A stretch of DNA of 30,676 nt from a virus (IMGVR_UViG_3300031673_000330), one strand, 5' to 3'; counted from the first letter of the stretch, positions 1 to 30,275 are shown. The notes: generated by a model not told the origin, from the letters alone. Numbers and translations: made by a program.

Positions 1-140
1 ATATAATATGATATCGAGCTACACTACTTTTTTACCTACTTTTCTTTTTCACTTGGGGTGTACTTTCTGGATAGGGGTGTTTTGTCAAATGTAACACTTA
101 TTATTTAAAATCAATAACTTAGTTCAACCAGATATGTCAT
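1..140. repeat. Left inverted terminal repeat (ITR-L), 140 bp
   Basis: The reverse complement of 30537..30676 equals 1..140 except one mismatch at position 128 (c versus t). Identity stops abruptly at 141. The window begins exactly at the repeat. Confidence 0.95.
82..111 (+). promoter_or_regulatory. Sigma70-like promoter inside ITR-L, pointing inward
   Basis: TTGTCA (82..87), an 18-nt spacer, then TAAAAT (106..111). The -10 matches the one recurring in other intergenic regions of this genome. Confidence 0.5.
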
Positions 141-317
141 GTAACAATTTCTTACAATTATCTAGTAAATAATTACAAAAAGGATAGATTAATAAGTTAA
201 GATAATATATACTTATATTTCACTGAGTAAATAAATAAGTTAGTAAATATTTAAGAAACCAGTGGAAGAATAGTTTAAAATAAAATATACTTAAAACACT
301 AACCAATGGAGAACTAA

Positions 318-638
318 ATGAAATCAGCTACCAAACTACAAAACTACGCACCGGAAACAGAAGCTACACAACGCAGAACAATAGAGAAAGACCTCATGCA
401 ATCATACGAAGCTAACCAAGTAAATCCAGGTAGGGATGAGAAAATTTCCGAGATAATTATGAAGGAAAAAGTAGTTTACAAAGAATATACACAAGATAAG
501 AAAGAACTTACACCAACACAACAAGCAAACCTATCTAAAACAGCGTTAGAAGCAGAGTTATCACTTTTAAAGCTTTACGAAGGAACAAAGTTTGGAAATC
601 AAATTCAACACTCCCTACAAATAAGAGGATTACTATAA
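318..638 (+). CDS. Hypothetical early protein (106 aa)
   Basis: First ORF of the rightward arm. GGAG lies about 8 nt upstream of the ATG, and the stop overlaps the next start (ATAATG). No motif recognised. Confidence 0.6.
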   Translation: MKSATKLQNYAPETEATQRRTIEKDLMQSYEANQVNPGRDEKISEIIMKEKVVYKEYTQDKKELTPTQQANLSKTALEAELSLLKLYEGTKFGNQIQHSLQIRGLL

Positions 639-1075
639 TGAATTATGAGGAAGCAACACAGGAGTTGGAGGATGCCACTATAGCGTTGTCCCAAGCTATG
701 ATTAACAAAGTATCATCTAGGGAGTTAGGGGTAGCTCAAGCTAAGTTTAACAAGGCTAAGAAGAAGAAACATATGGCTCATATGAATAACCTCTCTAAAT
801 TAGCTAGAATAGTTAACAAGGGTAACTCTTATGCTTCTAACCACGTTGTTACCGAGGAACATAAAGCTAAGGTTAGAGAGGCTAACTCTCATCCACAAAC
901 TGAAGAACACAAAGAAAAACGTAGATTAGCCATGATAGGGAAGAATATTGCCTCTAAGCCTATCGTGTCCTGCCCCCATTGTGATAAAGAAGGTGGTGTT
1001 AATATGATGAAACGTTGGCACTTCGATAATTGTAGACTGAGCCCTAACTTCGATCCACGTACAAGAGGAGAATAA
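638..1075 (+). CDS. NUMOD3-repeat plus Cys/His zinc-finger DNA-binding protein with no recognisable nuclease domain
   Basis: Two TEEHKxK(V/R)R motifs (NUMOD3-like), followed by CPHCDKEGGVNMMKRWHFDNC. That C-terminal motif is typical of phage GIY-YIG/HNH homing endonucleases. No catalytic motif was seen. Confidence 0.55.
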   Translation: MNYEEATQELEDATIALSQAMINKVSSRELGVAQAKFNKAKKKKHMAHMNNLSKLARIVNKGNSYASNHVVTEEHKAKVREANSHPQTEEHKEKRRLAMIGKNIASKPIVSCPHCDKEGGVNMMKRWHFDNCRLSPNFDPRTRGE

Positions 1076-1076
1076 A

Positions 1077-1460
1077 ATGTTTAATTTCACATACGCAATA
1101 TCAGTTATAACTGGGTTTAAGAAGGCTAAGGAAATAGAAGATAATATTCAAGAGGAACTGAGAGCCAATGATAAGAAATTCGAAAAAGAGAAATCCAAGT
1201 ATGAGTTAGAGAAAGAAGAACGTAGATTAGTCTGGGAAAAAGAAAATGATCTAAAGAAGAGGATTGATGCTTGTTATCTTGGATTTAGACATGAGGCGTT
1301 CTATGGAACATATGAGGAATTCTTAAATAGAACTAATAGGTTTATGCCTATCCCTAATATGAATAATATGTTCAGGGATCAGAGTTTAGCTAATGCTCAG
1401 GCAGCAGCGTATAATCGGTATGTATATAACCCTACCAATGGCTCTTGTTTTCCATTCTAA
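1077..1460 (+). CDS. Hypothetical protein with a charged coiled-coil N-terminal half (127 aa)
   Basis: The ORF is tightly coupled to the upstream gene (TAAAATG). It has a K/E-rich helical segment. No motif recognised. Confidence 0.55.
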   Translation: MFNFTYAISVITGFKKAKEIEDNIQEELRANDKKFEKEKSKYELEKEERRLVWEKENDLKKRIDACYLGFRHEAFYGTYEEFLNRTNRFMPIPNMNNMFRDQSLANAQAAAYNRYVYNPTNGSCFPF

Positions 1461-1543
1461 GGGGCCTACAACGCATCAAAACCTAGTTAAGGTACCTTCA
1501 CCCCTTCTAGGTTAAAACTAAGTCTTAAACAAGGATTAAAAGC

Positions 1544-2110
1544 GTGGATAACTTCAAACCAACATACTTATACATAAAGCAACACGAAGTAACTGGATTA
1601 CAGTACTTTGGTAAAACTACTAGAAAAAACGTAGAAGGATATCTTGGATCTGGAAAACACTGGAAAAGACATATTCGTAAACATGGAACTAACTATGTTA
1701 AGACTACTTGGTATATGCTTTTCACTAACTCCGTTGATCTTACGGCATTTGCGCTTAAGTTCTCCCAAGATAACGACATAGTTGAATCAAAAGAATGGGC
1801 TAATCTCATAGAAGAAAATGGAATTGATGGTGGATTTACTGGTAGTTACGCGGGCTGCTTTAAAAAAGGTGTCCGTAATAGTCCAGAAACAGAGTTTAAG
1901 AAAGGTGAATGTAAAGGAAATCCACGTATAGGACCTTGTTTAAAATGTGGATCAGAAGAACGAGGACCTAAAGGATGTTGTAAGCCCTGTAAAAAAGTTA
2001 TGGATGCAGCTTGGAAGAAGGAAAACAAAGGGAAACATAATGCTTATAACGCAATTTACAATAAGGCTACTAAACTACAGAAGGAATTCAATGATCTTAT
2101 ATTTAATTGA
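1544..2110 (+). CDS. GIY-YIG-like homing endonuclease with a C-terminal Cys4 zinc ribbon and AAWxKxNK repeats
   Basis: GTG start. The N-terminus reads YLYIKQHEVTGLQYFGKTT...YLGSGKHWKRHIRKHG, the pattern of phage GIY-YIG-type endonucleases. The C-terminus reads CLKCG..CCKPCKK followed by AAWKKENKGKHNAYN and AIYNKATKLQKE, the same module as in the three HNH genes. Confidence 0.6.
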   Translation: MDNFKPTYLYIKQHEVTGLQYFGKTTRKNVEGYLGSGKHWKRHIRKHGTNYVKTTWYMLFTNSVDLTAFALKFSQDNDIVESKEWANLIEENGIDGGFTGSYAGCFKKGVRNSPETEFKKGECKGNPRIGPCLKCGSEERGPKGCCKPCKKVMDAAWKKENKGKHNAYNAIYNKATKLQKEFNDLIFN

Positions 2111-2116
2111 TAATTC

Positions 2117-2125
2117 TGTTAAAAT
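2117..2125 (+). promoter_or_regulatory. Extended -10 promoter element TGTTAAAAT
   Basis: TGTTAAAAT lies at 2117..2125. The predicted +1 is 7 nt after the -10, at 2132. That is the A of the second in-frame ATG of the downstream ORF. No Shine-Dalgarno sequence is present. Confidence 0.45.
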
Positions 2126-2350
2126 ATGGTAATGAACCTAACTTCCATTAAAACAGTACTAAAAGGTGCGCTGACCGAACAAGACGGCAAAACCTTCTGT
2201 CTAATATCGCTATTCATCTATATAGCTATGGCAGCTGTAACCTATAAATTCCTAACCGGAGGGGCAACAACGTATCAAGACTACGCTTTATCTATGACTA
2301 TATTAGCCGGTGGAAAAGCTATTAAGTATATGTCTGATTCCCAAAATTAA
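2126..2350 (+). CDS. Small membrane protein (74 aa, or 72 aa from the ATG at 2132)
   Basis: Hydrophobic segment FCLISLFIYIAMAAVTYKFL. The gene sits immediately behind the promoter element. Confidence 0.6.
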   Translation: MVMNLTSIKTVLKGALTEQDGKTFCLISLFIYIAMAAVTYKFLTGGATTYQDYALSMTILAGGKAIKYMSDSQN

Positions 2351-2352
2351 CC

Positions 2353-2766
2353 ATGGCTATAGTTACTCTAAACCCAGAAGATTACTCCCTACCAGACTTT
2401 GTAAGAGAAGCCTGTGAAAAACCTATTGTTAAAGTCAACGAAACTATAGTAGAAGCTATGGCTGAGAAGGGGGCTACGTGGGAAACCTTGGAAGCTAAAT
2501 TCCTAGTTCATAAAGAGGATTTACAGAGGATAGTATCAGTTGCGTATACACAGGGTAGAGAGAGGTTCAAAGACGAGATGCTACGGAAGATAATCGACGT
2601 TGCAACCGAGGATCGTAACCCAGTGCTCTTGAAGTTTATAGGATCAACGTTGCTTGATCTAAATGAAAAAACCACGATTAAAACTGAGACTGAGACTGGG
2701 CCAGTAGATGAGGAAGCATTGAATATAAAGATAAATTCCCTATTAAAAAAACATGCTAAAAAGTAA
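2353..2766 (+). CDS. Hypothetical DNA-binding-type protein, a possible small terminase subunit
   Basis: 137 aa. The segment RNPVLLKFIGSTLLDLNEKT resembles the conserved N..m.IF..kn.LG..dK region of small terminases. The gene is not adjacent to terL, so the call is weak. Confidence 0.35.
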   Translation: MAIVTLNPEDYSLPDFVREACEKPIVKVNETIVEAMAEKGATWETLEAKFLVHKEDLQRIVSVAYTQGRERFKDEMLRKIIDVATEDRNPVLLKFIGSTLLDLNEKTTIKTETETGPVDEEALNIKINSLLKKHAKK

Positions 2767-2795
2767 TAAATAAGATAGTAAATAATCTTTGAGTA

Positions 2796-2804
2796 TGTTA
2801 AAAT
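2796..2804 (+). promoter_or_regulatory. Extended -10 promoter element TGTTAAAAT
   Basis: TGTTAAAAT lies at 2796..2804. The predicted +1 at 2811 is exactly the A of the ATG of the next ORF, and no SD is present. Confidence 0.5.
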
Positions 2805-2810
2805 ACATAT

Positions 2811-3029
2811 ATGAACAAAGTAAATAAATCTTTCGAGGATCATATGGTAACTAAAGAAGATGTAGCAGCAAATAACTTTCTCCACGCTCAATTCATAGCT
2901 TCAGGCTACGATTATATCGACGGAGAATACCAATCCAAACCCTATCAGGCAATGTTAGCACTCAATGCTCAAGCCCTGAAACTAACAGAAGAAGCTAATA
3001 AACTAATCGAGGAAATTAAACGTGGTTAA
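2811..3029 (+). CDS. Hypothetical protein (72 aa)
   Basis: ORF directly behind the promoter element. No motif recognised. Confidence 0.6.
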   Translation: MNKVNKSFEDHMVTKEDVAANNFLHAQFIASGYDYIDGEYQSKPYQAMLALNAQALKLTEEANKLIEEIKRG

Positions 3030-3225
3030 TCCAACAGAGTACATTGTTACGATTAGACTGGGTTTAAGAGACGACGATAATAACTTAGTTGCAGGCCAGG
3101 CAGGGGTAGATGCGTTATTAACTACGACTAGTAAAGGTCACTTAGTATTTCCGCATGATATCTTCGTTTCAGCAAGAGATATTCTAATCAAAGAATATGA
3201 AAAACAAGAAGTAGAAGCAAAATAA
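3022..3225 (+). CDS. Hypothetical protein (67 aa)
   Basis: GTG start overlapping the upstream stop. No motif recognised. Confidence 0.45.
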   Translation: MVNPTEYIVTIRLGLRDDDNNLVAGQAGVDALLTTTSKGHLVFPHDIFVSARDILIKEYEKQEVEAK

Positions 3226-3252
3226 TAACTTAACCCTTAAAGGAAAATATAA

Positions 3253-3435
3253 ATGTCACAGAATCAAACAGTAACTTTCTCACTTGAACAGATCAACCAA
3301 ATCATTGCTACACTAGGAGAAATCCCAGCTAAATATTCAGCTAATCTGCTTATGTTCGTAGCAGAAGTAACCAAGGCCCAAGTAGCTCCAGCCGAGGCTG
3401 CACCAGCACCAGTAGAAGTGGAAGCAGCAGTTTAA
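3253..3435 (+). CDS. Hypothetical protein (60 aa) with an A/P/E-rich tail
   Basis: AAAGGAA Shine-Dalgarno upstream. The stop overlaps the next start (TAATG). Confidence 0.6.
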   Translation: MSQNQTVTFSLEQINQIIATLGEIPAKYSANLLMFVAEVTKAQVAPAEAAPAPVEVEAAV

Positions 3436-3824
3436 TGGCCACTCATAGATTAGCAGGTAAACCCACTACCTCCTGGCCTGTGGAACTTAGACGTGAAACC
3501 ATAGACCTGAACAAAATAACGCTACTAGGTAAACGGCTAGTACTATTCCAGTTTGTGGACGAACTGGAGGGTCAGCAAGAGTTTAAAACTAGTTTTGGCC
3601 TAGTCATAGAGCGGAAACTGAATAAAAACAAACCACGCTGGGGCAAGTGCATTAAATCTACGTCTGATTCTGAGATTAAAGTCGGGGAGTATTTCTTACC
3701 TGAAAATACGATAGAGCCATTTGGCTGTAATATTAATGGTGTAGAACTCTGGCGCTGTAAGGACTCAGATATAAGCTTGGTTGCCGATAGCCTAGAGACT
3801 ATTAACGAGTATAACGAGGAGTAG
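3435..3824 (+). CDS. GroES/Cpn10-like co-chaperonin candidate
   Basis: The pattern LLGKRLVLFQFVDE..EFKTSFGLVI....KPRWGKCI....IKVGEYF......DSDISLVAD parallels E. coli GroES (RVIVKR..ETKSAGGIVL...RGEVLAVG...VKVGDIV...ESDILAIVE). Confidence 0.45.
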   Translation: MATHRLAGKPTTSWPVELRRETIDLNKITLLGKRLVLFQFVDELEGQQEFKTSFGLVIERKLNKNKPRWGKCIKSTSDSEIKVGEYFLPENTIEPFGCNINGVELWRCKDSDISLVADSLETINEYNEE

Positions 3825-3827
3825 TGT

Positions 3828-4031
3828 ATGACAACCCTAGCCGAGGACCTGCCAAAGGAGATAGCACGAGTTAGGGTTATTCTTGGTCACTACGAAGAAC
3901 TGGGCCATCCTGGAATGTTTGGTGCTGCGTTTATTAGAAACGATATTGAAGAGGCTATAGAAGCGATTATATCAGGGGATGTAGTTAAGATGATAACCTC
4001 GTTTAAAACGTTGCAAGAAATAAAAGACTAA
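3828..4031 (+). CDS. Hypothetical protein (67 aa)
   Basis: ORF coupled to the downstream gene (TAATG). No function recognised. Confidence 0.6.
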   Translation: MTTLAEDLPKEIARVRVILGHYEELGHPGMFGAAFIRNDIEEAIEAIISGDVVKMITSFKTLQEIKD

Positions 4032-4531
4032 TGAATACAACGAAGACTAAAACTATGGTTAAACCTTGTGTAAAATGTGGTGCTCAGGACAGAAATAAGC
4101 GTGGGCAGTGTAAACCCTGTAGGAAGGCTATGGCTGCAGCCTGGTACCTAGCCAACAAGGAGCGGGCTAAGTCTAAGGCTACGAGCGCAGCCTGGCGTAA
4201 AAATAACCCTGAGAAGGCTAAGGCTAAGGATGCAGCTTACAGAAAGGCTAATCTTTATAGGCGTAATACTCACGAAGCCAAACGCAGAGCTGCCAAGCTT
4301 AATGCAGTACCAACCTGGGGAAACAACTGGTTAGATAAAATCAAAATTCAGGAGCTATTTTTAATAGCTAAAATTAGATCAAAGGTAGAAGGCATTCAAT
4401 ATCAAGTCGACCATGCAGTTCCACTCCAGTCAGATCTAGTCTGTGGGTTACACTGCTTTAACAACCTACAGATTTTACCAGCCTCCGAGAATATCTCTAA
4501 AGGTAATAGAACTTGGCCCGACATGCCTTGA
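4031..4531 (+). CDS. HNH endonuclease paralog 1 (zinc ribbon, 3 helical repeats, HNH domain), immediately upstream of terL
   Basis: CVKCG..CKPC zinc ribbon. Three AAW(Y/R)xxNxE-type repeats. The C-terminus reads VDHAVPLQSDLVCGLHCFNNLQILPASENISKGNRTWPDMP (H-N-N/H core). Confidence 0.85.
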   Translation: MNTTKTKTMVKPCVKCGAQDRNKRGQCKPCRKAMAAAWYLANKERAKSKATSAAWRKNNPEKAKAKDAAYRKANLYRRNTHEAKRRAAKLNAVPTWGNNWLDKIKIQELFLIAKIRSKVEGIQYQVDHAVPLQSDLVCGLHCFNNLQILPASENISKGNRTWPDMP

Positions 4532-4533
4532 TT

Positions 4534-5952
4534 ATGAATAATCTATCCATACCCGAAAAGTTAGAATTGCTGCGCAGCCTGGAAACCTTAGACTACATAA
4601 AATCCGGTCGTAAGGTAGATACCATATTTGCCACAGAAGAGGTGCGTAGTCAATACCCCAAGCATATGGAATGGATTAAAGCGACGTCTGACCATTCTCA
4701 AGTATTGGCATTAGGAGCAAATCGTTGCGGAAAGACAGTACTCGGTGCATTTGCTATAACCTGTTTTTTAACAGGGGTATACCCCGATTGGTGGAACGGA
4801 ATTCGTTTCGATACCCCAGTAAATATCTGGGTCGCAGGCATTAGCAATCGTACAGTAAGAGACATTCTGCAGTTTGAATTGCTAGGTCCAATAGACGATC
4901 TTGGAACCGGAATGATCCCAAGGGACAATATAGGACCATATTCTAAATCGTCTGGGGTCTCGGATTTAATCGACGTTATTGATGTACTACACACCTCTGG
5001 TGGTAGATCCACGCTTGGTTTCAAAAGTTACGAATCGGGTAGAAAGAGTTTCCAAGGAACTGCAAAACAAATTATTTGGCTAGACGAGGAATGTCCCCAG
5101 GAGATTTTTGAAGAGTGTCTATTGCGCACTATGACAACTAGTGGGGTAGTGTTGTTGACTTTTACTCCATTATTTGGAATGACTCAACTTGTGCAGGACT
5201 TCATCTCCGCTGAGGATAATTCTGGTAAGGCAACAATCTCAATAAATTGGGATGATTGTGGTCACTTAACCAAGAAACAAAAAGACGCTATGTTCCTGGC
5301 TCTACCACCTCATCAAAGAGATGCTAGGTCTAAGGGTATACCCTCTCTTGGCGCAGGTGCTATATATCCAGTCCTAGAGGATAACTTCGTTATAGCTTCG
5401 TTCGAAATACCTAAACATTGGAAGAAAGTGGCAGGTTTTGACGTTGGTTGGAACTGGACTGCATGTGTTTGGTTAGCTATAGACCCAGAATCTGATACAA
5501 TGTACATTTATAGTAGTTATAAGCAAGGTGAACAACTTCCATTGTTTCACGCAGACGCATTGAAAGCTAGAGGTAAGTGGATTCCAATATGTATTGATCC
5601 GGCAGCTAGGGGAAGATCGCAGATTGACGGCATGAAAATCATAGACCAATATAAGGAACATGGTTTAAATTTATCAATTGCTAATAACTCAGTTGAGGCT
5701 GGGATATATTCTGTGTGGGAAGCTTTGAGCACGGGAAAGCTTAAAATATTTAATACGATGCCTAACATCTTAGAAGAATTTAGAATGTATCGTAGAGATA
5801 CTAAAGGTAAGGTAGTTAAGAGTAACGACCACCTTATGGACGCAATGAGATACGCAGTTATGACCAAGGACAAAGCTACGACTGACTTAGTTAAAGTCGT
5901 GGATCCATACCAATACACAACTATCAACCAAGGAACTAGAGTGACACTCTAA
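4534..5952 (+). CDS. terL: Terminase large subunit
   Basis: Walker A LGANRCGKT, Walker B IIWLDEE, and the C-terminal nuclease-domain motif DHLMDAMRYAV. The first ATG is at 4534. The tracked ORF opens at a TTG at 4513 that overlaps the HNH gene. Confidence 0.9.
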   Translation: MNNLSIPEKLELLRSLETLDYIKSGRKVDTIFATEEVRSQYPKHMEWIKATSDHSQVLALGANRCGKTVLGAFAITCFLTGVYPDWWNGIRFDTPVNIWVAGISNRTVRDILQFELLGPIDDLGTGMIPRDNIGPYSKSSGVSDLIDVIDVLHTSGGRSTLGFKSYESGRKSFQGTAKQIIWLDEECPQEIFEECLLRTMTTSGVVLLTFTPLFGMTQLVQDFISAEDNSGKATISINWDDCGHLTKKQKDAMFLALPPHQRDARSKGIPSLGAGAIYPVLEDNFVIASFEIPKHWKKVAGFDVGWNWTACVWLAIDPESDTMYIYSSYKQGEQLPLFHADALKARGKWIPICIDPAARGRSQIDGMKIIDQYKEHGLNLSIANNSVEAGIYSVWEALSTGKLKIFNTMPNILEEFRMYRRDTKGKVVKSNDHLMDAMRYAVMTKDKATTDLVKVVDPYQYTTINQGTRVTL

Positions 5953-5964
5953 TAGGAAAATAAA

Positions 5965-8223
5965 ATGGCAACCAAACCTAAAGAAGAAAATTCTGAAGAA
6001 TCAAAGATATTACGTGAAGCTAAACAACGTTTTAGCATAGCTCAAGAAGCTTGGAGTTCATTCTTCAAGGAATACAAAGATATAATGAAGTTCCTGAATG
6101 GGGACCAATGGGATCATCAACTAAGACAGAACCGTGAGAGTGCTGGTATACCTGTACTTTCAGTTAATGTACTTCCTACATATCTTCGCCAAATAACAAA
6201 CGAATCTCGTCAGAATTGCCCAGCTATACAAGTAGACCCTAAAGATACAGATGCTGACCAAGAAACAGCCGAAGTTTATTCTGATCTAATTCGTGGTATT
6301 GAACAAGACTCTAACGCAGCTACAGCCTATGATAACGCATCTTGGTACGCAGCTGGGACTGGTCTAGGCTTCTTCAGAGTTATATCTGAGTATGAAAGCC
6401 CTACTTCTTTCTTCCAGAAGCTGGTAATTAAGGGTATAGATGATCCTGAGACAGTTCTTATGGACCCTAATCATAAGTGTGTCGACGGTAGTGACTCAGA
6501 ATATTGCTTCGTTGTAACTACGTATACCAAAGAAGAATATAAGCGTCAGTTCTCCACCTCTAAATTAGCTACAGACATAGACGTAAAAGGGTTCTCAACT
6601 AACCAATCACAGTGGATACGTGAAGATGAAGTAGTTGTAGCAGAGTACTACTACAAGGACCATAAACCTGGTAAATTATATAAAGTCTTTAATACTAAAA
6701 CACTTGAGACAATTGTTGCCAGTGAAAAACCAAGCGAAGACTTAGTTAAAAGCGGCGTTTTAGTCGTGGTTGATACCCGTGTTATAGACGAAATTACAAT
6801 TAAATGGGCTAAGATAAACGACGTTGAAATCCTAGAAGAAACGTCTTGGCCTGGTGAATTCATCCCAGTCATAGCTGTAAAAGGTGATGAGTCTTGGGTA
6901 GATGGTAAACGTCACCTTAAAGGTGCAGTTAAGGATGCTATAGACTCGCAACGTGCATTTAACTACTTCTTCTCCTTACAGGCTGAGTTACTAAGCCTAG
7001 CTCCTAAAGCCCCGTTTATAGGTGAAGTTAGACAGTTTGCTAACTACGAACATATCTGGAGGGATGCTAATACTGCTCCTTCTGCTTATCTGCCCTATAA
7101 CGCCGTAGAATCTGCTAATGGACAAACTTTACCACCTCCAATGCGTCAGACAGCCGAAGTTCCAATCCAAGCTGCTATGGCTATGTGTGGTCAGGCCAGA
7201 GATAACATTAAGGGGGTGTTTGGAGTATTCGATGCTTCTATGGGGGCACAGGGTAACGAAGTTTCAGGCAAAGCTATACTGGCACGCACTGAGCAAAGTC
7301 ATACAACTACGTACCACTTCTACGACAACTTAGCTAAGGCAGTTCAGCAAGCTGGTCGTATATTGGTGCAAAGTATACCTACGTTCTACGCAGATGAAAG
7401 AAGTGTTCAACTTATTAAGCGTAATGGTCAATCTTCTACATCTCGTATAAATGATGGAAGTCCTGAACGCGATATAAACAAGGGTAACTACGGTGTAGTC
7501 GTAGAAACTGGTCCTAGTTATGCAACCCGTAGACAAGACTCAGTTGCCCATATGATTACTCTTGGTGAAGCTTATCCTCAAGCTATGCCTTTAATCGCAG
7601 ACTTAATCGCATCTGAAAGTGATTGGCCTGGTAGCAAAGCTATTGCAGCTAGGTTACGTATGGCTCTACCTCCTGAAATACAGCAACAAGAAGCTGCTAG
7701 TGGCAAAGGTATTACTCCAGAAGCCCAAGCTCAAATGGCAATAAGCCAAGTTAAACAACTTACTGGTCAACTACAACAATTACAAGGACAGGACCAGAAG
7801 GCCCAGGAACTTTTAAAGAATGCTGACGAGGAGATTAAGTTGCTTAAACTTAAATCTGGCGTAGAGTTAGCTAAGGCTGATAAAGACTTTGAGATTAAAG
7901 AGAAGCAAATGATGTTGGATGAACTGGAAGCCGAGCTAAGCTATAAGGTTAAATTAAGGGAATTAGATCTACAGAAAGAACAACTGGATATAGAAAGAGC
8001 TAAAGTTGGTATTAAAACCGTAGAGACTATGAGCGATCTAAATGATAACATGCATGACCGTACGATGGCTCATATCGACAAGGTAACTAAGGTTATAGAC
8101 GTGCCAGCACCTACTAAGCCTCATACTGATTCTGTATCTGAGAACGTAAGCCCATCAGGTAACTTAGAGGGTATTGATAAGTCCTTCCAAACCATGTCAG
8201 GTGAAGACGTTACTAATGGATAG
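5965..8223 (+). CDS. Portal protein, P22-like with a long C-terminal coiled-coil barrel
   Basis: 752 aa, placed directly after terL. It has a long Q/E/K/L heptad-like C-terminal helix (QQLQGQDQKAQELLKNADEEIKLLKLK...), as in P22 gp1. Confidence 0.85.
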   Translation: MATKPKEENSEESKILREAKQRFSIAQEAWSSFFKEYKDIMKFLNGDQWDHQLRQNRESAGIPVLSVNVLPTYLRQITNESRQNCPAIQVDPKDTDADQETAEVYSDLIRGIEQDSNAATAYDNASWYAAGTGLGFFRVISEYESPTSFFQKLVIKGIDDPETVLMDPNHKCVDGSDSEYCFVVTTYTKEEYKRQFSTSKLATDIDVKGFSTNQSQWIREDEVVVAEYYYKDHKPGKLYKVFNTKTLETIVASEKPSEDLVKSGVLVVVDTRVIDEITIKWAKINDVEILEETSWPGEFIPVIAVKGDESWVDGKRHLKGAVKDAIDSQRAFNYFFSLQAELLSLAPKAPFIGEVRQFANYEHIWRDANTAPSAYLPYNAVESANGQTLPPPMRQTAEVPIQAAMAMCGQARDNIKGVFGVFDASMGAQGNEVSGKAILARTEQSHTTTYHFYDNLAKAVQQAGRILVQSIPTFYADERSVQLIKRNGQSSTSRINDGSPERDINKGNYGVVVETGPSYATRRQDSVAHMITLGEAYPQAMPLIADLIASESDWPGSKAIAARLRMALPPEIQQQEAASGKGITPEAQAQMAISQVKQLTGQLQQLQGQDQKAQELLKNADEEIKLLKLKSGVELAKADKDFEIKEKQMMLDELEAELSYKVKLRELDLQKEQLDIERAKVGIKTVETMSDLNDNMHDRTMAHIDKVTKVIDVPAPTKPHTDSVSENVSPSGNLEGIDKSFQTMSGEDVTNG

Positions 8224-8240
8224 CATAGTTATAAATAATA

Positions 8241-8249
8241 TGTTAAAAT
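8241..8249 (+). promoter_or_regulatory. Extended -10 promoter element TGTTAAAAT upstream of the scaffold gene
   Basis: Exact TGTTAAAAT in the portal-scaffold intergenic region. Confidence 0.5.
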
Positions 8250-8335
8250 AATGTATTCGTAGCAGCAAGTTTACTGGTTCTTGTACCACCCAAAAAACCA
8301 GGATTAACTACTTTAACTAAAGGAAGAAACAAAGA

Positions 8336-9208
8336 ATGACAACCGAAAATCAAGCAGTAGAAGCAGCAACACAGGTAGGTGGAGTACCCGCAGAACAAGA
8401 AGTAACAGAACAAGTAGTACCAGGACTAGGTGCAGACGAACAGGGAACTGAGCAAGTAGCTAAGACTGATGAAGAAGTAGCAGCAGAAGCCCAGGCTGAA
8501 ATAGAACACGAAGAAAAGCAGAAGAAATCTGGGTTTGAGCGTAGAGTACAGAAGCTTAATAGTAAGATAGAAGCAGCTAAGAACGAAGCAGAATACTGGC
8601 GTGAACAAGCCTTGAAGAATTCTAAGGCACAGGACGTTCAACAAGCACCACAAGAGGCCCAAGAGCAAGCTCTAGCTAAACCAGCTATGGCTAACTACTC
8701 TAATATCGAGGAATATACAGAGGCTCTAACAGATTATAAGTTAGCCTTGCGTGACCAGCAACAGGCACAGCGTAATGAGCAAGCTCAACGTCAAAAAGCA
8801 CTGGATAACTACAACGCTAAAGTCAAGGACTTCGTTAAGACAACACCAGACTTTGCCGAAGCACTAGACGATGTTTCTGACATGGCTATTGCACCTGAAA
8901 TTCATCAGGCTATTCTTGGTAGTGATGCTGGTCCACAACTAGCTTATTACATGGCTAAAAACGTAGATGAAATTGATAGAATCAATAGTCTCAGTCCCCA
9001 ACGTAGACTAATTGAAATGGGTAAAATAGAGGATAGGTTAGCCAAGACAGCACCAGTTGTTGCACGTGTAACTAAACCTGCTCCAGCCCCAGTTAAGCCT
9101 GTCGCTGGTGGTGCTCCGATATCTCAAAAGTCTGTATACGAAATGACAGCGCAGGAACTCATGCGGCACCGAAATGAACAAGAGGGTCGTATTGGAAGAC
9201 GTCGCTAA
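8336..9208 (+). CDS. Scaffolding protein
   Basis: Lies between portal and coat. Highly charged, A/E/Q-rich and helical, with a basic C-terminal end (RIGRRR). Strong SD AAAGGAAG. Confidence 0.7.
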   Translation: MTTENQAVEAATQVGGVPAEQEVTEQVVPGLGADEQGTEQVAKTDEEVAAEAQAEIEHEEKQKKSGFERRVQKLNSKIEAAKNEAEYWREQALKNSKAQDVQQAPQEAQEQALAKPAMANYSNIEEYTEALTDYKLALRDQQQAQRNEQAQRQKALDNYNAKVKDFVKTTPDFAEALDDVSDMAIAPEIHQAILGSDAGPQLAYYMAKNVDEIDRINSLSPQRRLIEMGKIEDRLAKTAPVVARVTKPAPAPVKPVAGGAPISQKSVYEMTAQELMRHRNEQEGRIGRRR

Positions 9209-9321
9209 ACCTAGAAATTACGTGGCCCTAGCTTTGTCTAAGCGTGGTGGTAAAGGGCCACATATTAAATCAACTAAGTCTAAACGTAGATTAAGCAAGG
9301 TTAAACTAAAGGAAGAAGATC

Positions 9322-9483
9322 ATGGCAAAGAGTAAGTTTAAGAAACTAGAAGAAAAAATAGATAAACAAAAGGGTATTGATAAGGACTCAGCTGCTGCTA
9401 TAGCTGCTTCTATAGGACGCAAGAAGCTAGGAGAGAAGGAAATGGTCCGTAGGGAAAAGACTGGTATTAAAAAGGCTAAATGA
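9322..9483 (+). CDS. Small basic protein (53 aa), absent from the ORF track
   Basis: ATG at 9322 preceded by AAGGAAG. The TGA overlaps the ATG of the HNH gene (ATGA). Sequence: MAKSKFKKLEEKIDKQKGIDKDSAAAIAASIGRKKLGEKEMVRREKTGIKKAK. Confidence 0.5.
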   Translation: MAKSKFKKLEEKIDKQKGIDKDSAAAIAASIGRKKLGEKEMVRREKTGIKKAK

Positions 9484-10040
9484 TAAAACCCTGTGTAAAA
9501 TGTGGTAGCACAGATAGGTATAAGAATGGGGCTTGTAAACCTTGTGCAAAGGCTGGTATAGCAGCCTACTACCAGGCAAACAAAGAGAGTATTAAGACTA
9601 GGCATACAGCTTACAGAAAGGCAAATCCTGAAAAGCATAATGCTAGGAATGCAGTCTGGGCTAAGGCAAATCCCGAGAAGGTTAAGGCTAAGAACGCAGT
9701 TATTTACCAGGAAAACAAAGAGAATATTAAGACTAGGCATGCAGCGTATAGAAAAGTTAATATACACAAATATAATGCGCTAAGCGCAAAACGTCGCTCA
9801 GCTAAGCTTAATGCAATCCCAGCCTGGGCCAATAACTGGTTAGAGAAATTAAAAATCCAGGAGCTATTTCTAATAGCTAAAGTTAAATCGGAGGTAGAGG
9901 GAATACCCTACCACGTCGATCACATAGCTCCCCTTCAATCTGACTTAGTCTGCGGCTTACACTGTTTTAATAATCTAAGAGTAATACCAGCCTCTGAGAA
10001 TATCAGCAAAGGCAACAGAACTTGGCCGGATATGCCTTAA
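9480..10040 (+). CDS. HNH endonuclease paralog 2 (zinc ribbon, 5 helical repeats, HNH domain), inserted between scaffold and coat genes
   Basis: CVKCG..CKPC zinc ribbon. Five 15-aa repeats (AAYYQANKESIKTRH and similar). The C-terminus reads VDHIAPLQSDLVCGLHCFNNLRVIPASENISKGNRTWPDMP. Confidence 0.85.
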   Translation: MIKPCVKCGSTDRYKNGACKPCAKAGIAAYYQANKESIKTRHTAYRKANPEKHNARNAVWAKANPEKVKAKNAVIYQENKENIKTRHAAYRKVNIHKYNALSAKRRSAKLNAIPAWANNWLEKLKIQELFLIAKVKSEVEGIPYHVDHIAPLQSDLVCGLHCFNNLRVIPASENISKGNRTWPDMP

Positions 10041-10051
10041 TAATAAATATT

Positions 10052-10081
10052 TTTACAAATATGGAATTTATGTGTTAAAAT
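10052..10081 (+). promoter_or_regulatory. Strong sigma70-type promoter for the coat-gene transcription unit
   Basis: TTTACA (10052..10057), a 17-18 nt spacer, then the extended -10 TGTTAAAAT (10073..10081). Confidence 0.6.
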
Positions 10082-10295
10082 AAGGTATAGAATTAAAGTT
10101 ACTGGACTTACAACCAGGCTAATAACAAGTTTCTAACTTGGTCTAATAGTAATACCCTCAGCTGCAACAAAGTTAATACTTTGTTTGGAACAGTATCCAG
10201 ATCTCAGCAATCGGAAATTCGGTAATACAAAACAAACAATACAGTAGCTAAGAAAGCTACTTACAATTAACTTTATAAGAAAGGTAACAAATATT

Positions 10296-11525
10296 ATGGC
10301 AAACCAACTTTTAACTATTAGTATGATCACGGCCGAATCTGCACGTGTGTTGGGTAACAACATCGTTCTGGGTAAAACTGTAAATCGCGACTACGACGAG
10401 GACTTCGCTGTCAAAGGCGCCAAGATAGGTCAGTCAACCAACGTTCGTAAACCTGCACGTTATAAAACACGTACTGGAGCTGTCGTAGACATCCAAGCTC
10501 AAAATGAGACTTGGGCACCACTGACTTTCGTAGATCCAATCGGTGTCGATCTTGCGTTTACTTCGCAAGAACTGACATTCTCGTTGGATGATTTCTCTAG
10601 CCGTGTTGTTAAACCTTCTGTTGTGGCTATTGCCAACCAGGTGGATAATCTAGGTTTTGACCTGGTTAAACAAGCATTTAACTACGTTGGTGCTCCTGGT
10701 ACTGCTATTACTGCTTCTACTGCACGTACAGCCGTACTGCAAGCAGCTGCTAACCTGTATGACAATGACGCTCCTGTAGGTGGAGAGGACCTTCATTTCA
10801 TCTCTGGTTCTAGCTTTAACGCAGTTCTTTCTGATTCTAATTCTTCGTTGTTTAACCCAATGAAAGAGATTTCAGAAATCTACGTTAAAGGTATGCAAGG
10901 CGAATTTGGTGGTTTCAAACACTACATGGACCAATTAGTTCCTAGCCATACTGCTGGTACTTACACTGCTAAAGGTACAACTCTGACTACTGGTTCCCCT
11001 CAGTCTGGTTCTACTCTGAACACTGTAGGTTGGACTTCAGGTGGTACTAGCCTTAAAGCTGGTGACGTGTTCACCTTGGCAGGTGTGTATGCTGTTAATC
11101 CACAAACCAAATCGGCTTATAGCTGGCTGCAACCATTCACAGTTACTGCTGATATCTCGGACACAACTGGTGCAATCGCAGCTCTGCCAATCAGCCCAGC
11201 AATAGTTGGACCTGGTAATCCGTTACAAAACGTATCTGCACTGCCTGCTACTTCGGTTCAAATTAACCTGGTTGCTGCTTCAGGTAATGTATCTCAACAA
11301 GCTATCGGCTTCCACAGAGACGCATTCATGCTGGCAAACCAAGAGTTGGTTCTTCCGATGGGCGTAGAAAGAGCTGATTATGTTCGTGATGAACAAACTA
11401 AGGTTGGTATCCGTGTGGTATCTCAGTTCGATATCAGAACTAACCAGCACATCACTCGTTTCGATACGATGGTTGCTTGGGCTACTCTGTATCCTCAACT
11501 GTGCACAAGAGTATTCACAAACTAA
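10296..11525 (+). CDS. Major capsid protein (P22-coat-like family, PF11651 type)
   Basis: The N-terminal pattern ITAESARVLGNNIVLGKTVNRDYDEDF..KG..IG.STNVRKPARY is typical of that coat family. Position after the scaffold gene, 409 aa. Confidence 0.8.
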   Translation: MANQLLTISMITAESARVLGNNIVLGKTVNRDYDEDFAVKGAKIGQSTNVRKPARYKTRTGAVVDIQAQNETWAPLTFVDPIGVDLAFTSQELTFSLDDFSSRVVKPSVVAIANQVDNLGFDLVKQAFNYVGAPGTAITASTARTAVLQAAANLYDNDAPVGGEDLHFISGSSFNAVLSDSNSSLFNPMKEISEIYVKGMQGEFGGFKHYMDQLVPSHTAGTYTAKGTTLTTGSPQSGSTLNTVGWTSGGTSLKAGDVFTLAGVYAVNPQTKSAYSWLQPFTVTADISDTTGAIAALPISPAIVGPGNPLQNVSALPATSVQINLVAASGNVSQQAIGFHRDAFMLANQELVLPMGVERADYVRDEQTKVGIRVVSQFDIRTNQHITRFDTMVAWATLYPQLCTRVFTN

Positions 11526-11530
11526 GAAAT

Positions 11531-11550
11531 GGCCTGGGGAAACCCAGGTC
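11531..11550 (+). other. RNA stem-loop with a GAAA tetraloop just after the coat stop codon
   Basis: GGCCTGGG-GAAA-CCCAGGTC forms a 6-8 bp stem. No U-tract follows, so it is more likely an mRNA-stabilising or processing hairpin than a terminator. Confidence 0.5.
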
Positions 11551-11586
11551 ACTCTAACTAACTAATTAACTAAAAAGGAACTTATT

Positions 11587-11787
11587 ATGTCAGCACCAAA
11601 TATTGAAATTTCGAGCAACCCAGATATCGTCTCTGGTGGTGGAGTTAATGGCTTCGGGGCAGGCTTCGCAGCTTACCTAGATGCTGATGCACCTCCTTAC
11701 GCACCTGGTGTCATCTACTTTAGTCTTACTGATAATAAACTAAAAGTAGGCGGAGCTACTGCGTACGAAACTATAACCTCTGCTTAA
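11587..11787 (+). CDS. Small G/A-rich protein co-transcribed with the coat gene (66 aa), a possible head decoration or accessory protein
   Basis: Strong SD AAAAGGAA. It lies between the coat gene and the terminator. Confidence 0.5.
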   Translation: MSAPNIEISSNPDIVSGGGVNGFGAGFAAYLDADAPPYAPGVIYFSLTDNKLKVGGATAYETITSA

Positions 11788-11818
11788 TCTTAGATTAAAC
11801 TAGGTTTAAAACAAAGCT

Positions 11819-11852
11819 AAAGGACTAGGAGTTAAAAGCCCTGGTCCTTTTT
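11819..11852 (+). terminator. Rho-independent terminator closing the coat transcription unit
   Basis: AAAGGACTAGG, a 10-nt loop, then CCTGGTCCTTTTT. The stem is 8 bp G/C-containing with one G-T wobble, extended by A-T pairs, and is followed by a T-run. Confidence 0.7.
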
Positions 11853-11868
11853 GCATAAGGGTTATATA

Positions 11869-12009
11869 ATGCCTATACAGAAGTCCAAGTCTAACAAAGC
11901 TGTTAGCAAAAACATTAAAATAGAAATAGCTGCTGGAAAACCACAGAAACAAGCTATTGCTATAGCCTTGAGCGTTCAACGTGAGGCAAAGAAGAATAAA
12001 AGGAGATAA
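11869..12009 (+). CDS. Small basic protein (46 aa), absent from the ORF track
   Basis: Sequence: MPIQKSKSNKAVSKNIKIEIAAGKPQKQAIAIALSVQREAKKNKRR. The KQAIAIALS motif recurs in small phage and bacterial proteins. The ORF ends 3 nt before the adaptor gene. Confidence 0.45.
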   Translation: MPIQKSKSNKAVSKNIKIEIAAGKPQKQAIAIALSVQREAKKNKRR

Positions 12010-12012
12010 CAT

Positions 12013-13032
12013 ATGTCGTCCACTACGAGAGAACTAATTACAGGGGCACTACGACTAATCAACGTTGTGCAGGCTAATGAAACGCCTAGCCCAGACGACA
12101 TGAACATAGCTTTATCTGCTTTTGATGCTATGATTGATTCGTGGGCTAATGATAAGCTCATGGTATATTCTATTAAGCCATACCTATTTAATACAGTAGG
12201 GGGTCAGCAGGATTACTTTTTAGGTCCTGGTAATCCAGTTCAAATCTTAGATCCAACCTCATTAACTACTGGATTGGGATACGTGGATGGTATCTACTCT
12301 AATGTACCTCTTACTGGATCTGCTACCGGATCTGGGGCATTAGCTACGGTTATCGTAGCTGGTGGTGTAGTAACCTCAGTTTCAATTCCTCCGTCTAATC
12401 AAACACCTGGTAATGGTGGAACTGGCTATGTTGTAGGCGACGTTTTAACTGCGTCTAATTCGAATCTGGGGGGTAGTGGTATTGGATTTAGTATAACTGT
12501 TCTAACAGTAGGACCAGGAGATTGGAATATAACTCGTCCGTTAGTAATAGAACAGGCATTCGTTGTGTGGAGTTCTGGAGCACAAACCGTAGATTTACCA
12601 GTAGCTCTGTTAAATGATTCCCAATTCGCCTCTATAGCAGTTAAAGAAACTCCTAGCAGCTTCCCCTTTGCCATGTATGATAATGGTAATTTCCCCATTA
12701 AGACAGTATCTGTATGGCCTGTTCCTACAGTTTCAACGCCTATGCGTTTATGGCTGCGTGAACCATTACTTGATATGGCTAACCTAGATTCTGTCATAGT
12801 TTACCCTCCTGGCTATGAAAGAGCCTTCCGATTCAACTTAGCTGTGGAATTAGCACCTGAATTTGGTAAAGCAGTGGCACAATCAGTTTCCGCAACTGCG
12901 TTATCATCTAGGTTGGCTATAGCTAGACTTAATGCTACACCACAGTATTCTATAGGGGATGGTGGATTAAATGCCCAGCGTTCCCCTTTCAATTATATCA
13001 CTGGTGGATTTTTGCCTTTAACTAGGTTTTAA
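12013..13032 (+). CDS. Head-to-tail adaptor, P22 gp4-like, with a large internal insertion
   Basis: The N-terminus LITGALRLINVV...SPDDMNIALSAFDAMIDSW parallels P22 gp4 (LVRAALRKLGVAS...SMQDAVDDLEAMMAEW). At 339 aa it is about twice the size of gp4, owing to a duplicated GxGYV.G...LT insertion. Confidence 0.65.
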   Translation: MSSTTRELITGALRLINVVQANETPSPDDMNIALSAFDAMIDSWANDKLMVYSIKPYLFNTVGGQQDYFLGPGNPVQILDPTSLTTGLGYVDGIYSNVPLTGSATGSGALATVIVAGGVVTSVSIPPSNQTPGNGGTGYVVGDVLTASNSNLGGSGIGFSITVLTVGPGDWNITRPLVIEQAFVVWSSGAQTVDLPVALLNDSQFASIAVKETPSSFPFAMYDNGNFPIKTVSVWPVPTVSTPMRLWLREPLLDMANLDSVIVYPPGYERAFRFNLAVELAPEFGKAVAQSVSATALSSRLAIARLNATPQYSIGDGGLNAQRSPFNYITGGFLPLTRF

Positions 13033-13034
13033 TC

Positions 13035-16209: not shown

Positions 16210-16225
16210 TAAAGGTAATTAAATC

Positions 16226-19207: not shown

Positions 19208-19216
19208 TGATATAAT
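19208..19216 (+). promoter_or_regulatory. Extended -10 element TGATATAAT
   Basis: A perfect TGnTATAAT lies 30 nt upstream of the small-ORF ATG at 19246. Confidence 0.4.
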
Positions 19217-21466: not shown

Positions 21467-21470
21467 TATA

Positions 21471-22946: not shown

Positions 22947-22960
22947 TTCTAGGGAAATAT

Positions 22961-22989
22961 TTGTACCTTCTGGTACAATACATTAAAAT
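22961..22989 (+). promoter_or_regulatory. Promoter (TTGTAC-N17-TAAAAT) whose -35 lies in a perfect 7-bp-stem palindrome
   Basis: TTGTACC-TTCT-GGTACAA spans 22961..22978, and TAAAAT lies at 22984..22989. The hairpin could also act as a weak terminator or operator between fibre genes 2 and 3. Confidence 0.45.
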
Positions 22990-23013
22990 AGTAAATACAT
23001 AACAGGAACCTAG

Positions 23014-26304: not shown

Positions 26305-26319
26305 GGCTAGGGGTAAACT

Positions 26320-28091: not shown

Positions 28092-28092
28092 A

Positions 28093-29557: not shown

Positions 29558-29582
29558 TTTATTTCCTTTTAGTTAGGGTATG

Positions 29583-30254: not shown

Positions 30255-30275
30255 CTTTCTGTCTACGTTTTACCT

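Follow-up and report, generated by a model that had tools for sequence, protein, structure and literature searches.

A phage genome with a P22-like virion module and no recognisable replication genes, whose apparent terminal repeats belong to an inverted repeat inside the genome

The window (the whole stretch of DNA that we analysed, 30,676 nt) contains, near its left end, a region, 141-4031, that consists of a leader/promoter, a lineage-specific block of five small ORFs (A-E) and a conserved packaging block (F, then G-K including J), which ends at an inserted HNH gene and terL. Related genomes used for comparison are designated L095, L099, L101, L104 and L105. The left part of the window contains the following features.

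1..143, plus strand: left arm of an inverted repeat that is internal to the genome and no terminus (from the repeat match and the k141 assemblies)
144..317, plus strand: AT-rich (84%) non-coding leader/promoter region before the first ORF
318..638, plus strand: ORF A, 106 aa, orphan, with a GGAG ribosome-binding site
638..1075, plus strand: ORF B, 145 aa, basic, matching phrog_655 (profile positions 107-232 of 343)
1077..1460, plus strand: ORF C, 127 aa, orphan; hydrophobic at the N-terminus, then charged and helical
1544..2110, plus strand: ORF D, 188 aa, interpreted from its sequence as a homing endonuclease
2126..2350, plus strand: ORF E, 74 aa, small, hydrophobic, probably a membrane protein
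2353..2766, plus strand: ORF F, 137 aa, HTH protein, interpreted as a terminase small subunit
2811..3435, plus strand: ORFs G (2811-3029), H (3022-3225) and I (3253-3435), 60-72 aa, acidic
3435..3824, plus strand: ORF J, 129 aa, a neighbour of terL in L095, L101 and L105 (37-46% identity)
3828..4031, plus strand: ORF K, 67 aa

Judged by sequence, two of the five orphan ORFs A-E are homing-endonuclease derivatives. ORF B matches the DNA-binding part of homing endonucleases (NUMOD3-like plus Zn-finger). No nuclease domain was detected in ORF B, and the first ~100 positions of the phrog_655 profile were uncovered. ORF D has a GIY-YIG-like N-terminus (YLY-x10-YFG, read by eye) with a weak match to phrog_314, and its C-terminal Zn-ribbon and repeat module is common to three HNH paralogs (E 1e-11 to 1e-12). 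The string GLQYFGKT in ORF D (1544-2110), the one match to the Walker A pattern outside terL, is the proposed YFG half of the GIY-YIG-like motif. The AF2 model of ORF A is a low-confidence four-helix protein for which we found no fold or family match.

We interpret ORF F as a putative terminase small subunit, based on its AF2 model (pLDDT = 86) and on its linkage to J and terL, which is kept in three relatives (L095, L101 and L105). Its BFVD fold matches were mostly uncharacterised; the named ones were 'Terminase small subunit' and 'Homeodomain phBC6A51-type' (E 1e-3 to 0.6). ORF F had no match in PDB, Pfam or PHROGs. ORF H has a partial match in L101 (56% identity). ORF J is probably a packaging or morphogenesis accessory protein; a guess that it is GroES-like found no support.

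The remainder of the window carries packaging, virion and lysis genes.

4031..4531, plus strand: HNH endonuclease paralog 1 (phrog_1035 / phrog_26577)
4513..5952, plus strand: terminase large subunit, terL (Terminase_6N/6C)
5965..15355, plus strand: P22-like head and neck module
9480-10040: HNH paralog 2, inserted between scaffold and coat
15352..19170, plus strand: ejection-protein block
19697..27060, plus strand: tail fibre/spike genes (589, 491, 1096 and 246 aa)
27186..27515, plus strand: holin (phrog_920)
27512..30254, minus strand: right arm, read inward from the right repeat arm, without a replication gene
29583-30254, minus strand: HNH paralog 3, first in order in the right arm
30534..30676, minus strand: right arm of the internal inverted repeat, followed in the full genome by a 176-nt AT-rich spacer and then window position 1

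We found that the virion genes are P22-like. The head and neck module holds portal, scaffold, HNH paralog 2, coat, adaptor, a gp10-like stabilisation protein and a 283-aa tail protein. PHROG matches included phrog_156 (portal, 1.5e-119), phrog_283 (coat), phrog_578 (Hc3) and, for the 285-aa protein of the ejection block, phrog_598 ('DNA ejection'). Precomputed Pfam matches were to PF16510 (P22-type portal) and PF11651 (P22 coat), and the order of the virion genes is syntenic with P26218 and MW202573. The P22-like phages that we compared (Rhodoferax phage P26218, Vibrio phage VvAW1, Thalassomonas phage BA3 and the uncultured MW202573; 33-40 kb) are short-tailed and share the order terL, portal (PF16510), scaffold, coat (PF11651), adaptor, gp10-like Phage_stabilise, ejection proteins and fibres, with 30-40% identity in the virion module. 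The 491-aa and 1096-aa fibre genes have internal repeats in common. In the right arm, HNH paralog 3 is followed by i- and o-spanin-like ORFs, a 47-aa membrane ORF, a 108-aa HExxH protein, a DUF5675 protein (131 aa), a 78-aa basic ORF and a 128-aa double-DUF1737 protein.

We regard HNH paralog 1 as a probable homing-endonuclease insertion rather than a cofactor of the terminase. We read it as an insertion because L095 and L105 have no HNH gene at terL, and the two further HNH paralogs in the genome point to a mobile homing endonuclease. L095 also lacks the HNH gene between scaffold and coat.

In line with the gene-content claim of the original prediction, the genome gave no sign of a polymerase, primase, helicase, loader, initiator, recombinase or integrase in searches of PHROGs, Pfam, NCBIfam and PDB sequences, in a scan for Walker A motifs or in tblastn searches with the replication proteins of relatives. 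No replication, recombination or integration family was matched in PHROGs (40 ORFs), Pfam (20 ORFs) or NCBIfam (10 ORFs). Neither P22/lambda-type initiators and helicases or loaders (gp18/gp12, O/P) nor an integrase or repressor family was matched in any ORF, no protelomerase or integrase-like match was found among the ORFs, and nothing in the genome resembled the relatives' DnaB or PolA genes in tblastn searches. The only genuine P-loop in the genome is that of terL. Profile searches of the early ORFs and of the ejection block (15352..19170), which the original prediction had proposed alongside structure searches, gave no polymerase, primase or terminal-protein signal; of the orphans, ORF A was the one modelled. 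P26218 encodes a DNA polymerase and two helicases and MW202573 a DnaB-type helicase, whereas this genome, 4-8 kb smaller than the P22-like phages compared, encodes none of these. An unrecognised replication protein may sit among the nine of eleven left-arm ORFs that have no assigned function.

The size arguments of the original prediction fared unevenly. All ORFs left of the HNH/terL pair are indeed 188 aa or shorter, and all ORFs above 280 aa fall within the P22-like virion module by family matches or synteny. The statement that no ORF is large enough for a protein-primed polymerase was wrong: phi29 polymerase has ~575 aa, and ORFs of 582 aa and 589 aa are about that size. We exclude these two as polymerases because of their content and synteny, not their size. 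The 589-aa protein shares a homologous N-terminus with the fibre paralogs of relatives, indicating a tail fibre. The 582-aa protein and the neighbouring 403-aa protein are low-complexity, rich in Ala/Gly/Pro/Thr, at the syntenic position of P22-type ejection proteins, and without a PDB sequence match. No family match to a family-B protein-primed polymerase was found (all ORFs with PHROGs; subsets with Pfam and NCBIfam), and none to a terminal protein, a class whose fast divergence limits sequence search.

We found that the DNA continues beyond the two ends of the window, which are unlikely to be physical genome ends. The inverted repeat at 1-143 and 30534-30676 is 143 nt long with 99% identity and a single mismatch (window 128 vs 30549). 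Its perfectly matching part, which ends at the mismatch at position 128, is 127 nt, the same as the top k-mer of metaSPAdes, the assembler of the JGI workflow (k <=127). The proteins of the window are on record from JGI, Logan and ENA, and near-identical copies of the genome have been assembled from at least five samples. Two MEGAHIT contigs from independent assemblies (k141_3271208 and k141_2750625, 30,993 nt each) match the window at all but 2 positions. In both, one and the same 176-nt spacer, identically oriented, leads from the right end of the window to its left end. A 141-nt end overlap, the hallmark of a circular contig, was verified for k141_2750625, and the real length is thus 30,852 nt. 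The spacer is unique, non-palindromic, AT-rich and non-coding. Because it lies between both window ends, the apparent ITRs are arms of an internal inverted repeat; in the full genome, arms of 143-152 nt face one another over the spacer. The window represents 99.4% of the 30,852-bp genome and lacks 176 non-coding nt.

These results show that the apparent ITRs were produced by an assembler breaking a circle at the 127-nt exact inverted repeat; the setting k = 127 would account for the break. Logan contigs begin at window 98, 30 nt short of the end of the exact repeat, which is consistent with a break at the same repeat provided that Logan used k = 31. In CheckV, >90% completeness was found for 33.2% of ITR contigs vs 90% of DTR contigs.

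A linear genome with true ITRs, replicated by protein priming or another end-specific mechanism with a cryptic polymerase or terminal protein or by a new strategy, now has almost no likelihood. The position of the 143-nt repeat exactly at both window ends and the two ORFs near polymerase size had spoken for it. Against it are the unique spacer between the supposed ends in two independent assemblies, one of them with verified circular overlap; the coincidence of exact repeat length and assembler k-mer; the lack of any PolB, terminal-protein or protelomerase signal; the assignments of the 589-aa and 582-aa proteins given above; and terL itself, since a nuclease-bearing terminase (Terminase_6N/6C) implies that a longer DNA substrate is cut. 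phi29/Salasmaviridae and PRD1/Tectiviridae share with this genome only inverted repeats that appear at contig ends; here the repeats are internal, no family-B polymerase or terminal protein was found, and there is a terminase with a nuclease domain and a P22-like virion module. The genome also differs from N15-type hairpin phage-plasmids, having no protelomerase match and a non-palindromic spacer.

A genome that assembles as a circle would pose no end-replication problem and require no special end replication, and the question of a terminal protein is moot with the window ends internal. The description of the genome as ITR-bounded therefore falls, and with it the premise that a terminal protein, an end-binding factor or some new way of replicating the ends is needed. 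Recruitment of host functions, which the original prediction had also offered, stays the best reading. That prediction had named incompleteness of the contig as refuting evidence. The contig is incomplete by 176 nt, which removes the ITR premise; the missing piece is non-coding, so the argument from gene content is unaffected. The phage probably depends on the replication machinery of its host.

The junction of the two window ends comprises the spacer and the repeat arms. The left arm carries one copy of a 21-mer, ATATAATATGATATCGAGCTA, at 1-21 and two copies of the motif GGGGTGT (55-61 and 74-80). The spacer and arm tips together contain four copies of the 21-mer, two direct and two inverted, of which three are exact and one matches at 17/21 positions. 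These copies flank the AT-richest 100-nt window in the genome (86% AT), and clustered repeats beside an AT-rich element are the arrangement of an iteron-type origin. Two identical sigma70-like promoter-like sites point away from the spacer: TTGTCA-18-TAAAAT at 82-111, directed into the left arm of the genome, and its mirror at 30595-30566, directed into the minus-strand right arm. They would serve transcription of the left arm (plus strand) and of the right arm (minus strand), respectively. The leader (144-317) contains two 60-nt imperfect direct repeats. We found no DnaA-box cluster at the junction and no replication-type skew at four-fold sites, and the leaders matched no Rfam family.

We think it reasonably likely that the window is a linearised circular genome of an uncultivated P22-like podovirus whose DNA is copied by the host replisome, with the junction as the likeliest origin. 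Copying would be left wholly to the host replisome, acting on circularised DNA or on concatemers, and the iteron-like 21-mers and AT-rich core between twin promoters would mark the origin. The direction of the promoter-like sites, away from the AT-rich core, weakens the origin reading, as do the lack of a DnaA-box cluster, of replication-type skew and of a structured leader or Rfam match. The junction could equally serve as a cos/pac site or an operator region.

The features of the junction also fit a possible, if unlikely, alternative, that it is mainly a packaging site (cos/pac) and that host-dependent replication starts elsewhere. ORF F would then bind the 21-mers and the terminase, perhaps with the adjacent HNH protein, would cut the AT-rich core, giving linear virion DNA with sub-terminal inverted repeats. 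The 21-mers in both orientations around a partly symmetric AT-rich core form an arrangement that we take to resemble lambda cosB/cosN. ORF F is a predicted HTH, small-terminase-like protein, an HNH gene adjoins terL, a position that would suit HK97-type HNH-assisted cos packaging, and many virulent podoviruses have their genome ends just upstream of early promoters. However, ORF F is encoded 2.3 kb away from the junction, no HNH gene adjoins terL in the closest relatives (L095 and L105), and pac of P22-type phages is located within the small terminase gene.

Alternatively, no phage initiator may be needed and replication would be started by the host, through R-loops at the strong twin promoters or, on recombination intermediates formed by host RecA, through PriA-dependent restart. 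We found no candidate initiator fold, and promoter-like sites flank an easily melted AT-rich core. Nevertheless, we consider this start unlikely: transcription from the promoter-like sites would run away from the core, the leaders had no more RNA structure than shuffled sequence, and we found no phage recombinase that could supply recombination-dependent replication.

Our preferred reading, host replication with the junction as origin, resembles lambda-type origins in having four 21-mers beside the AT-richest 100 nt and in the probable dependence on host polymerase. It differs in that no O-like initiator or P/DnaC-like loader was found, and the repeats of this putative origin are two plus two inverted, intergenic, between divergent promoter-like sites and outside an initiator gene. 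Any phage-encoded origin-binding factor would be among orphans A, B and C, and ORF B is the sole one of these with a recognisable DNA-binding module.

The closest full-length relative is L095 (ENA ERZ28573527, BUSI22-1 scaffold_1138, 32,324 nt, uncultivated). Its coat, portal and terL are 70%, 56% and 55% identical to those described here, it has homologs of F and J, and gene order is common. Directly upstream of its F homolog, L095 encodes a 319-aa primase and a 556-aa DUF5906 primase/helicase, a position occupied here by the orphan and homing-endonuclease ORFs. In L099 (31.5 kb), no primase or helicase was found in the 18.5 kb examined, and only small ORFs are at the cassette position. Relatives without replication genes are provisional, as the last ~13 kb of L099 and ~9 kb of L104 were outside the comparison. 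L104 encodes a serine recombinase and an RNase_T exonuclease. The replication module in this clade looks like an exchangeable cassette.

The presence of the L095 primase/helicase at this position might also suggest that the phage has lost such a cassette and, satellite-like, draws on the replication functions of a helper phage in the same cell. This is very improbable. The virion, packaging and lysis set is complete, near-identical copies come from at least five samples, no remnant of an L095-type cassette is present in the genome, and another relative also appears to lack the cassette.

More specifically, a virulent ~31-kb tailed phage without its own helicase, primase, polymerase or known initiator might use an orphan protein of 145 aa or less to recruit the host replisome to the junction, a proposal that we regard as doubtful. 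The origin would be the quasi-palindromic arrangement of four 21-mers around the AT-rich core, between twin divergent promoters, and the best candidate recruiter would be ORF B, a DNA-binding remnant of a homing endonuclease. If so, phages would have a new and minimal type of replication module that can be exchanged for the L095 primase/helicase cassette, and other members of the clade, such as L099, may replicate likewise.

We found that the terminal inverted repeat of the window is real and that the ends it appears to bound are not. As the original prediction had described, the two ends carry an inverted repeat (143 nt, 99% complementary). Its sole mismatch is at position 128, leaving an exact portion of 127 nt, which equals the upper k-mer setting of metaSPAdes in the JGI metagenome workflow. 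A contig that runs from one 127-mer to its reverse complement is what a de Bruijn graph yields if an assembler breaks it at an internal inverted repeat.

The window's proteins have entries from JGI, Logan and ENA, and exact matches to the proteins of its first and last genes located the same phage in other assemblies. Two MEGAHIT contigs from different samples (ena:ERZ27256808:k141_3271208 and ena:ERZ27256847:k141_2750625) are each 30,993 nt long and have different genome start points. Both pass directly from the right-arm HNH gene to the ORF at 318-638, and 176 additional bases, identical in sequence and orientation, separate window position 30676 from position 1 (L088, 4054-4229). In ena:ERZ27256847:k141_2750625 the first 141 nt recur as the last 141 nt, as is characteristic of circular contigs from MEGAHIT. 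Removing this overlap gives a genome of 30,852 bp, exactly 176 nt more than the window. Because the spacer is unique and non-palindromic, reading through a hairpin or joining ITR ends head to tail could not have produced it. Comparison of the assemblies gave no evidence that the spacer inverts (flip-flops) between the repeat arms. Logan contigs start at window position 98, 30 nt short of the end of the exact repeat, as expected of a break at this repeat too, provided that the Logan k is 31. Neither the ITR and spacer sequences nor the expected 430-nt complementary contig was found in IMG/VR or among JGI metagenome contigs.

The "ITR-bounded genome" is thus an assembly artefact resting on a real internal inverted repeat. 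The idea of a linear ITR genome replicated by protein priming is in effect refuted by the two assemblies that run through both "ends" by way of the spacer, one of them circular. What had been most striking in the original prediction, an ITR genome without a polymerase, is likewise an artefact. The contig lacks only 176 bases, all of them non-coding. More generally, a metagenomic viral contig can owe its "ITR" label purely to the assembly graph. If the exact repeat is as long as the assembler's k-mer, such a contig represents a circle, or a larger genome, opened at an internal inverted repeat, and biology drawn from "linear with ITRs" is then unfounded. The CheckV authors found more than 90% completeness in only 33.2% of ITR contigs, versus 90% of DTR contigs.

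Two further features of the assemblies were noted. Logan contigs from two runs (L085 and L089) end at window position 19211, in the AT-rich stretch that separates the 582-aa ORF from the small ORF after it, and no repeat at this site explains the break. The window differs from the MEGAHIT assemblies at 2 bases only, 9891 and 29935 (G versus A), both within HNH paralogs that are ~70-80% similar to each other. These differences could be assembly cross-talk between paralogs or genuine gene conversion.

The absence of recognisable replication genes held up, now for a complete podovirus genome of ~31 kb. Profile searches (PHROGs, 40 ORFs; Pfam, 20; NCBIfam, 10) detected no replication, recombination or integration gene. 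They recognised terL, a P22-type portal, scaffold, coat, adaptor, a gp10-like protein, a 283-aa tail protein, one ejection protein, fibre genes, a holin, spanins and three HNH paralogs. The genome has complete sets of virion, packaging and lysis genes. Of the large ORFs, three gave no family match and can be placed in the virion set by homology or position. The N-terminal ~100 aa of the 589-aa ORF are common to the N-termini of fibre genes of relatives, including gp26 of the P22-like phage P26218. The 403-aa and 582-aa ORFs, which are low-complexity, rich in Ala, Gly, Pro and Thr, and without a sequence match in the PDB, directly follow the phrog_598 ejection protein, the position of P22-type ejection proteins. 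A six-frame scan for the Walker-A pattern gave two matches only, terL and GLQYFGKT in ORF D; this argues against a helicase, loader, DnaA-like, SF3 or RecA-like protein. The ORF D match was rejected as a P-loop, being the proposed YFG half of a GIY-YIG-like motif. No remnant of the primase, primase/helicase, PolA, helicase or DnaB genes of relatives was found in the window by tblastn, even at E = 50, and inspection of the small ORFs by eye revealed no HUH rolling-circle motifs.

All plausible genes to the left of the HNH/terL pair encode proteins of 60-188 aa, as originally described:

144-317: AT-rich leader
ORF A: 106 aa, orphan
ORF B: 145 aa, match to a homing-endonuclease profile confined to the NUMOD3/Zn-finger part in its middle
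ORF C: 127 aa, orphan
ORF D (1544-2110): 188 aa, GIY-YIG-like N-terminus as read from the sequence
ORF E: 74 aa, hydrophobic
ORF F: 137 aa, conserved
ORF J: 129 aa, conserved beside terL in the metagenomic relatives L095, L101 and L105
ORFs G, H, I and K: small proteins without assigned function

ORFs A-E lie in an orphan block of 2 kb (318-2350) and have no homologs in any related locus, except for a short match in the Zn-finger region of ORF B. An AF2 model of ORF A is a four-helix fold of low confidence (pLDDT 68), and all of its Foldseek matches were meaningless (E >= 1). A search of 1.84 billion representative proteins gave 18 homologs of ORF F; a word-indexed search returned only F itself. 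The protein has a weak HTH signal and an AF2 model with pLDDT 86. Most of its BFVD fold matches are uncharacterised, and those that carry a name are 'Terminase small subunit' and 'phBC6A51-type homeodomain'. In L095, L101 and L105 the F gene is linked to ORF J and terL. We read ORF F as a putative small terminase subunit, not an initiator. A GroES-like assignment for ORF J was dropped: BLASTP did not align it with the Cpn10-like protein of the relative L099, and it had no PDB, Pfam or PHROG match.

A nucleotide search of 50,697 phage records with 25 kb of the window gave no match, and the closest cultured phages are distant (coat <=40% identical, portal <=38%). These P22-like phages are 33-40 kb and, unlike the window, have replication genes: P26218 a polymerase and helicases, and MW202573, another P22-like genome, a DnaB-type helicase. 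The closest full-length metagenomic relative is L095 (32,324 nt; coat 70%, portal 56% and terL 55% identical). Directly upstream of its F homolog, L095 carries a 319-aa primase (phrog_9765) and a 556-aa DUF5906 primase/helicase. In contrast, the window has orphans and homing endonucleases at this position. L099 (31,486 nt) has only small ORFs ahead of terL (GIY-YIG, GroES-like, lysozyme and unknowns). L104 (31,238 nt; terL 52%, coat 37% identical) is temperate and carries an RNase_T exonuclease and a serine recombinase. The large serine recombinase and an integrase-like fragment lie at L104 1-1258 and 7658-8251, and the wider clade therefore includes temperate members. Nothing suggests lysogeny for the window phage itself. 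A search for a host, made with the coat protein against 185,579 species genomes, gave no relative.

These comparisons suggest that the replication module is an exchangeable cassette within this clade. Missing replication genes are not rare among metagenomic phages with orphan early genes, and as it stands the present case is the ordinary one of early genes of unknown function. The contrast with the primase/helicase of its sister genome L095 makes the orphan block and the junction (the two repeat arms plus the spacer, 462 nt in total) a small, defined and testable target for asking how such phages capture the host replisome.

The repeat arms measure 143 nt (99% identity) in the window; in L083 they measure 152 nt (97%). 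The features of the junction are:

window 82-111, plus strand: promoter-like site TTGTCA-18-TAAAAT, 10/12 matches, directed away from the spacer
window 30595-30566, minus strand: promoter-like site TTGTCA-18-TAAAAT, 10/12 matches, directed away from the spacer
genome 30808-30828 and window 1-21: direct copies of the 21-mer ATATAATATGATATCGAGCTA
30656-30676 and 30691-30711 (17/21 match): inverted copies of the same 21-mer

Two GGGGTGT motifs lie upstream of the promoter-like site in each arm. From their sequence, the arms look like twin promoter modules that would serve two divergent operons: on the plus strand, the left arm with the virion genes that follow it, and on the minus strand, the right arm with HNH, spanins, DUF5675 and other genes. 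All four copies of the 21-mer in the genome are at the junction, where they flank a ~96-nt core containing the AT-richest 100-nt window of the genome (86% AT).

We suggest that the DNA circularises or forms concatemers and is then copied by the host replisome, in which case there would be no end-replication problem. The best candidate origin would be the junction, with its iteron-like 21-mers around an AT-rich core, and any phage-encoded origin-binding factor would be ORF A, B or C. Alternatively, the junction might be a cos/pac site bound by ORF F, a role compatible with that of an origin. Replication might also begin without any phage initiator, or the phage might rely on a helper phage. If no phage protein, or a very small new one, suffices for replication by the host replisome, this would add to the known phage replication modules. 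DnaA boxes were found at 12 scattered sites, each with one mismatch, with no cluster and none at the junction. A ColE1-like structured primer RNA in the leaders was unsupported: the leaders are not significantly structured (z-scores -0.85 and -1.21), and no tRNA or Rfam family was found at the junction or leaders. Four-fold degenerate sites showed no replication-type skew switch. Cumulative GC skew peaks near 16 kb, probably an effect of the amino-acid composition of the fibre genes.

Just inside the right repeat arm, the untranslated leader contains three copies of GGTTTTAG / TGTTTTAA with 12-nt spacing (window 30496-30539).

Homing-endonuclease-derived genes, including ORF B, make up ~8% of the genome. 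The HNH paralogs are:

window 4031-4531: HNH paralog 1
window 9480-10040: HNH paralog 2
window 29583-30254, minus strand: HNH paralog 3

All three share with the C-terminus of ORF D a DNA-binding module (E 1e-11 to 1e-12), a Zn ribbon followed by 15-aa 'AAWxKANxEK' repeats; thus one targeting module is fused to two nuclease types. The HNH genes adjoining terL and between scaffold and coat are absent from L095 and L105, and they appear to be insertions rather than part of a conserved HNH-terminase pair. HNH paralog 3 contains five tandem 45-nt repeats (window 29844-30164). The coat gene and HNH paralog 3 are preceded by promoter-like sequences that resemble each other (TTTACA or TTGTAA, N17, TGTGTTAAAAT; window 10040-10082 and 30275-30317, respectively). 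Each adjoins an HNH paralog, and this sequence may travel together with the endonuclease gene. A pair of overlapping and very basic ORFs, each of 53 aa (window 9174-9483), immediately precedes HNH paralog 2; these may be remnants of a degraded endonuclease N-terminus.

The adjacent tail-fibre genes (21471-22946 and 23014-26304) have in common 11 copies of a repeat 57-107 nt long, whose translation was read as resembling PxxGQ(I/V)LTATSGT.A.WQ, as well as longer segments of 112-197 nt. The common segments suggest duplication or exchange of modules between the two genes. The lysis cassette (window 28093-28814, minus strand) has spanin-like genes without a canonical endolysin. Candidates for the endolysin are a 131-aa DUF5675 protein and a 108-aa HExxH protein (phrog_1233); the 'SEGC' motif of the former is reminiscent of L,D-transpeptidase-type active sites. 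In a 128-aa ORF (window 27512-27898, minus strand), two DUF1737-like halves precede a TKTKTK tail, and the coding sequence of this tail includes a periodic sequence (window 27497-27564) similar to that in the leader inside the right repeat arm.
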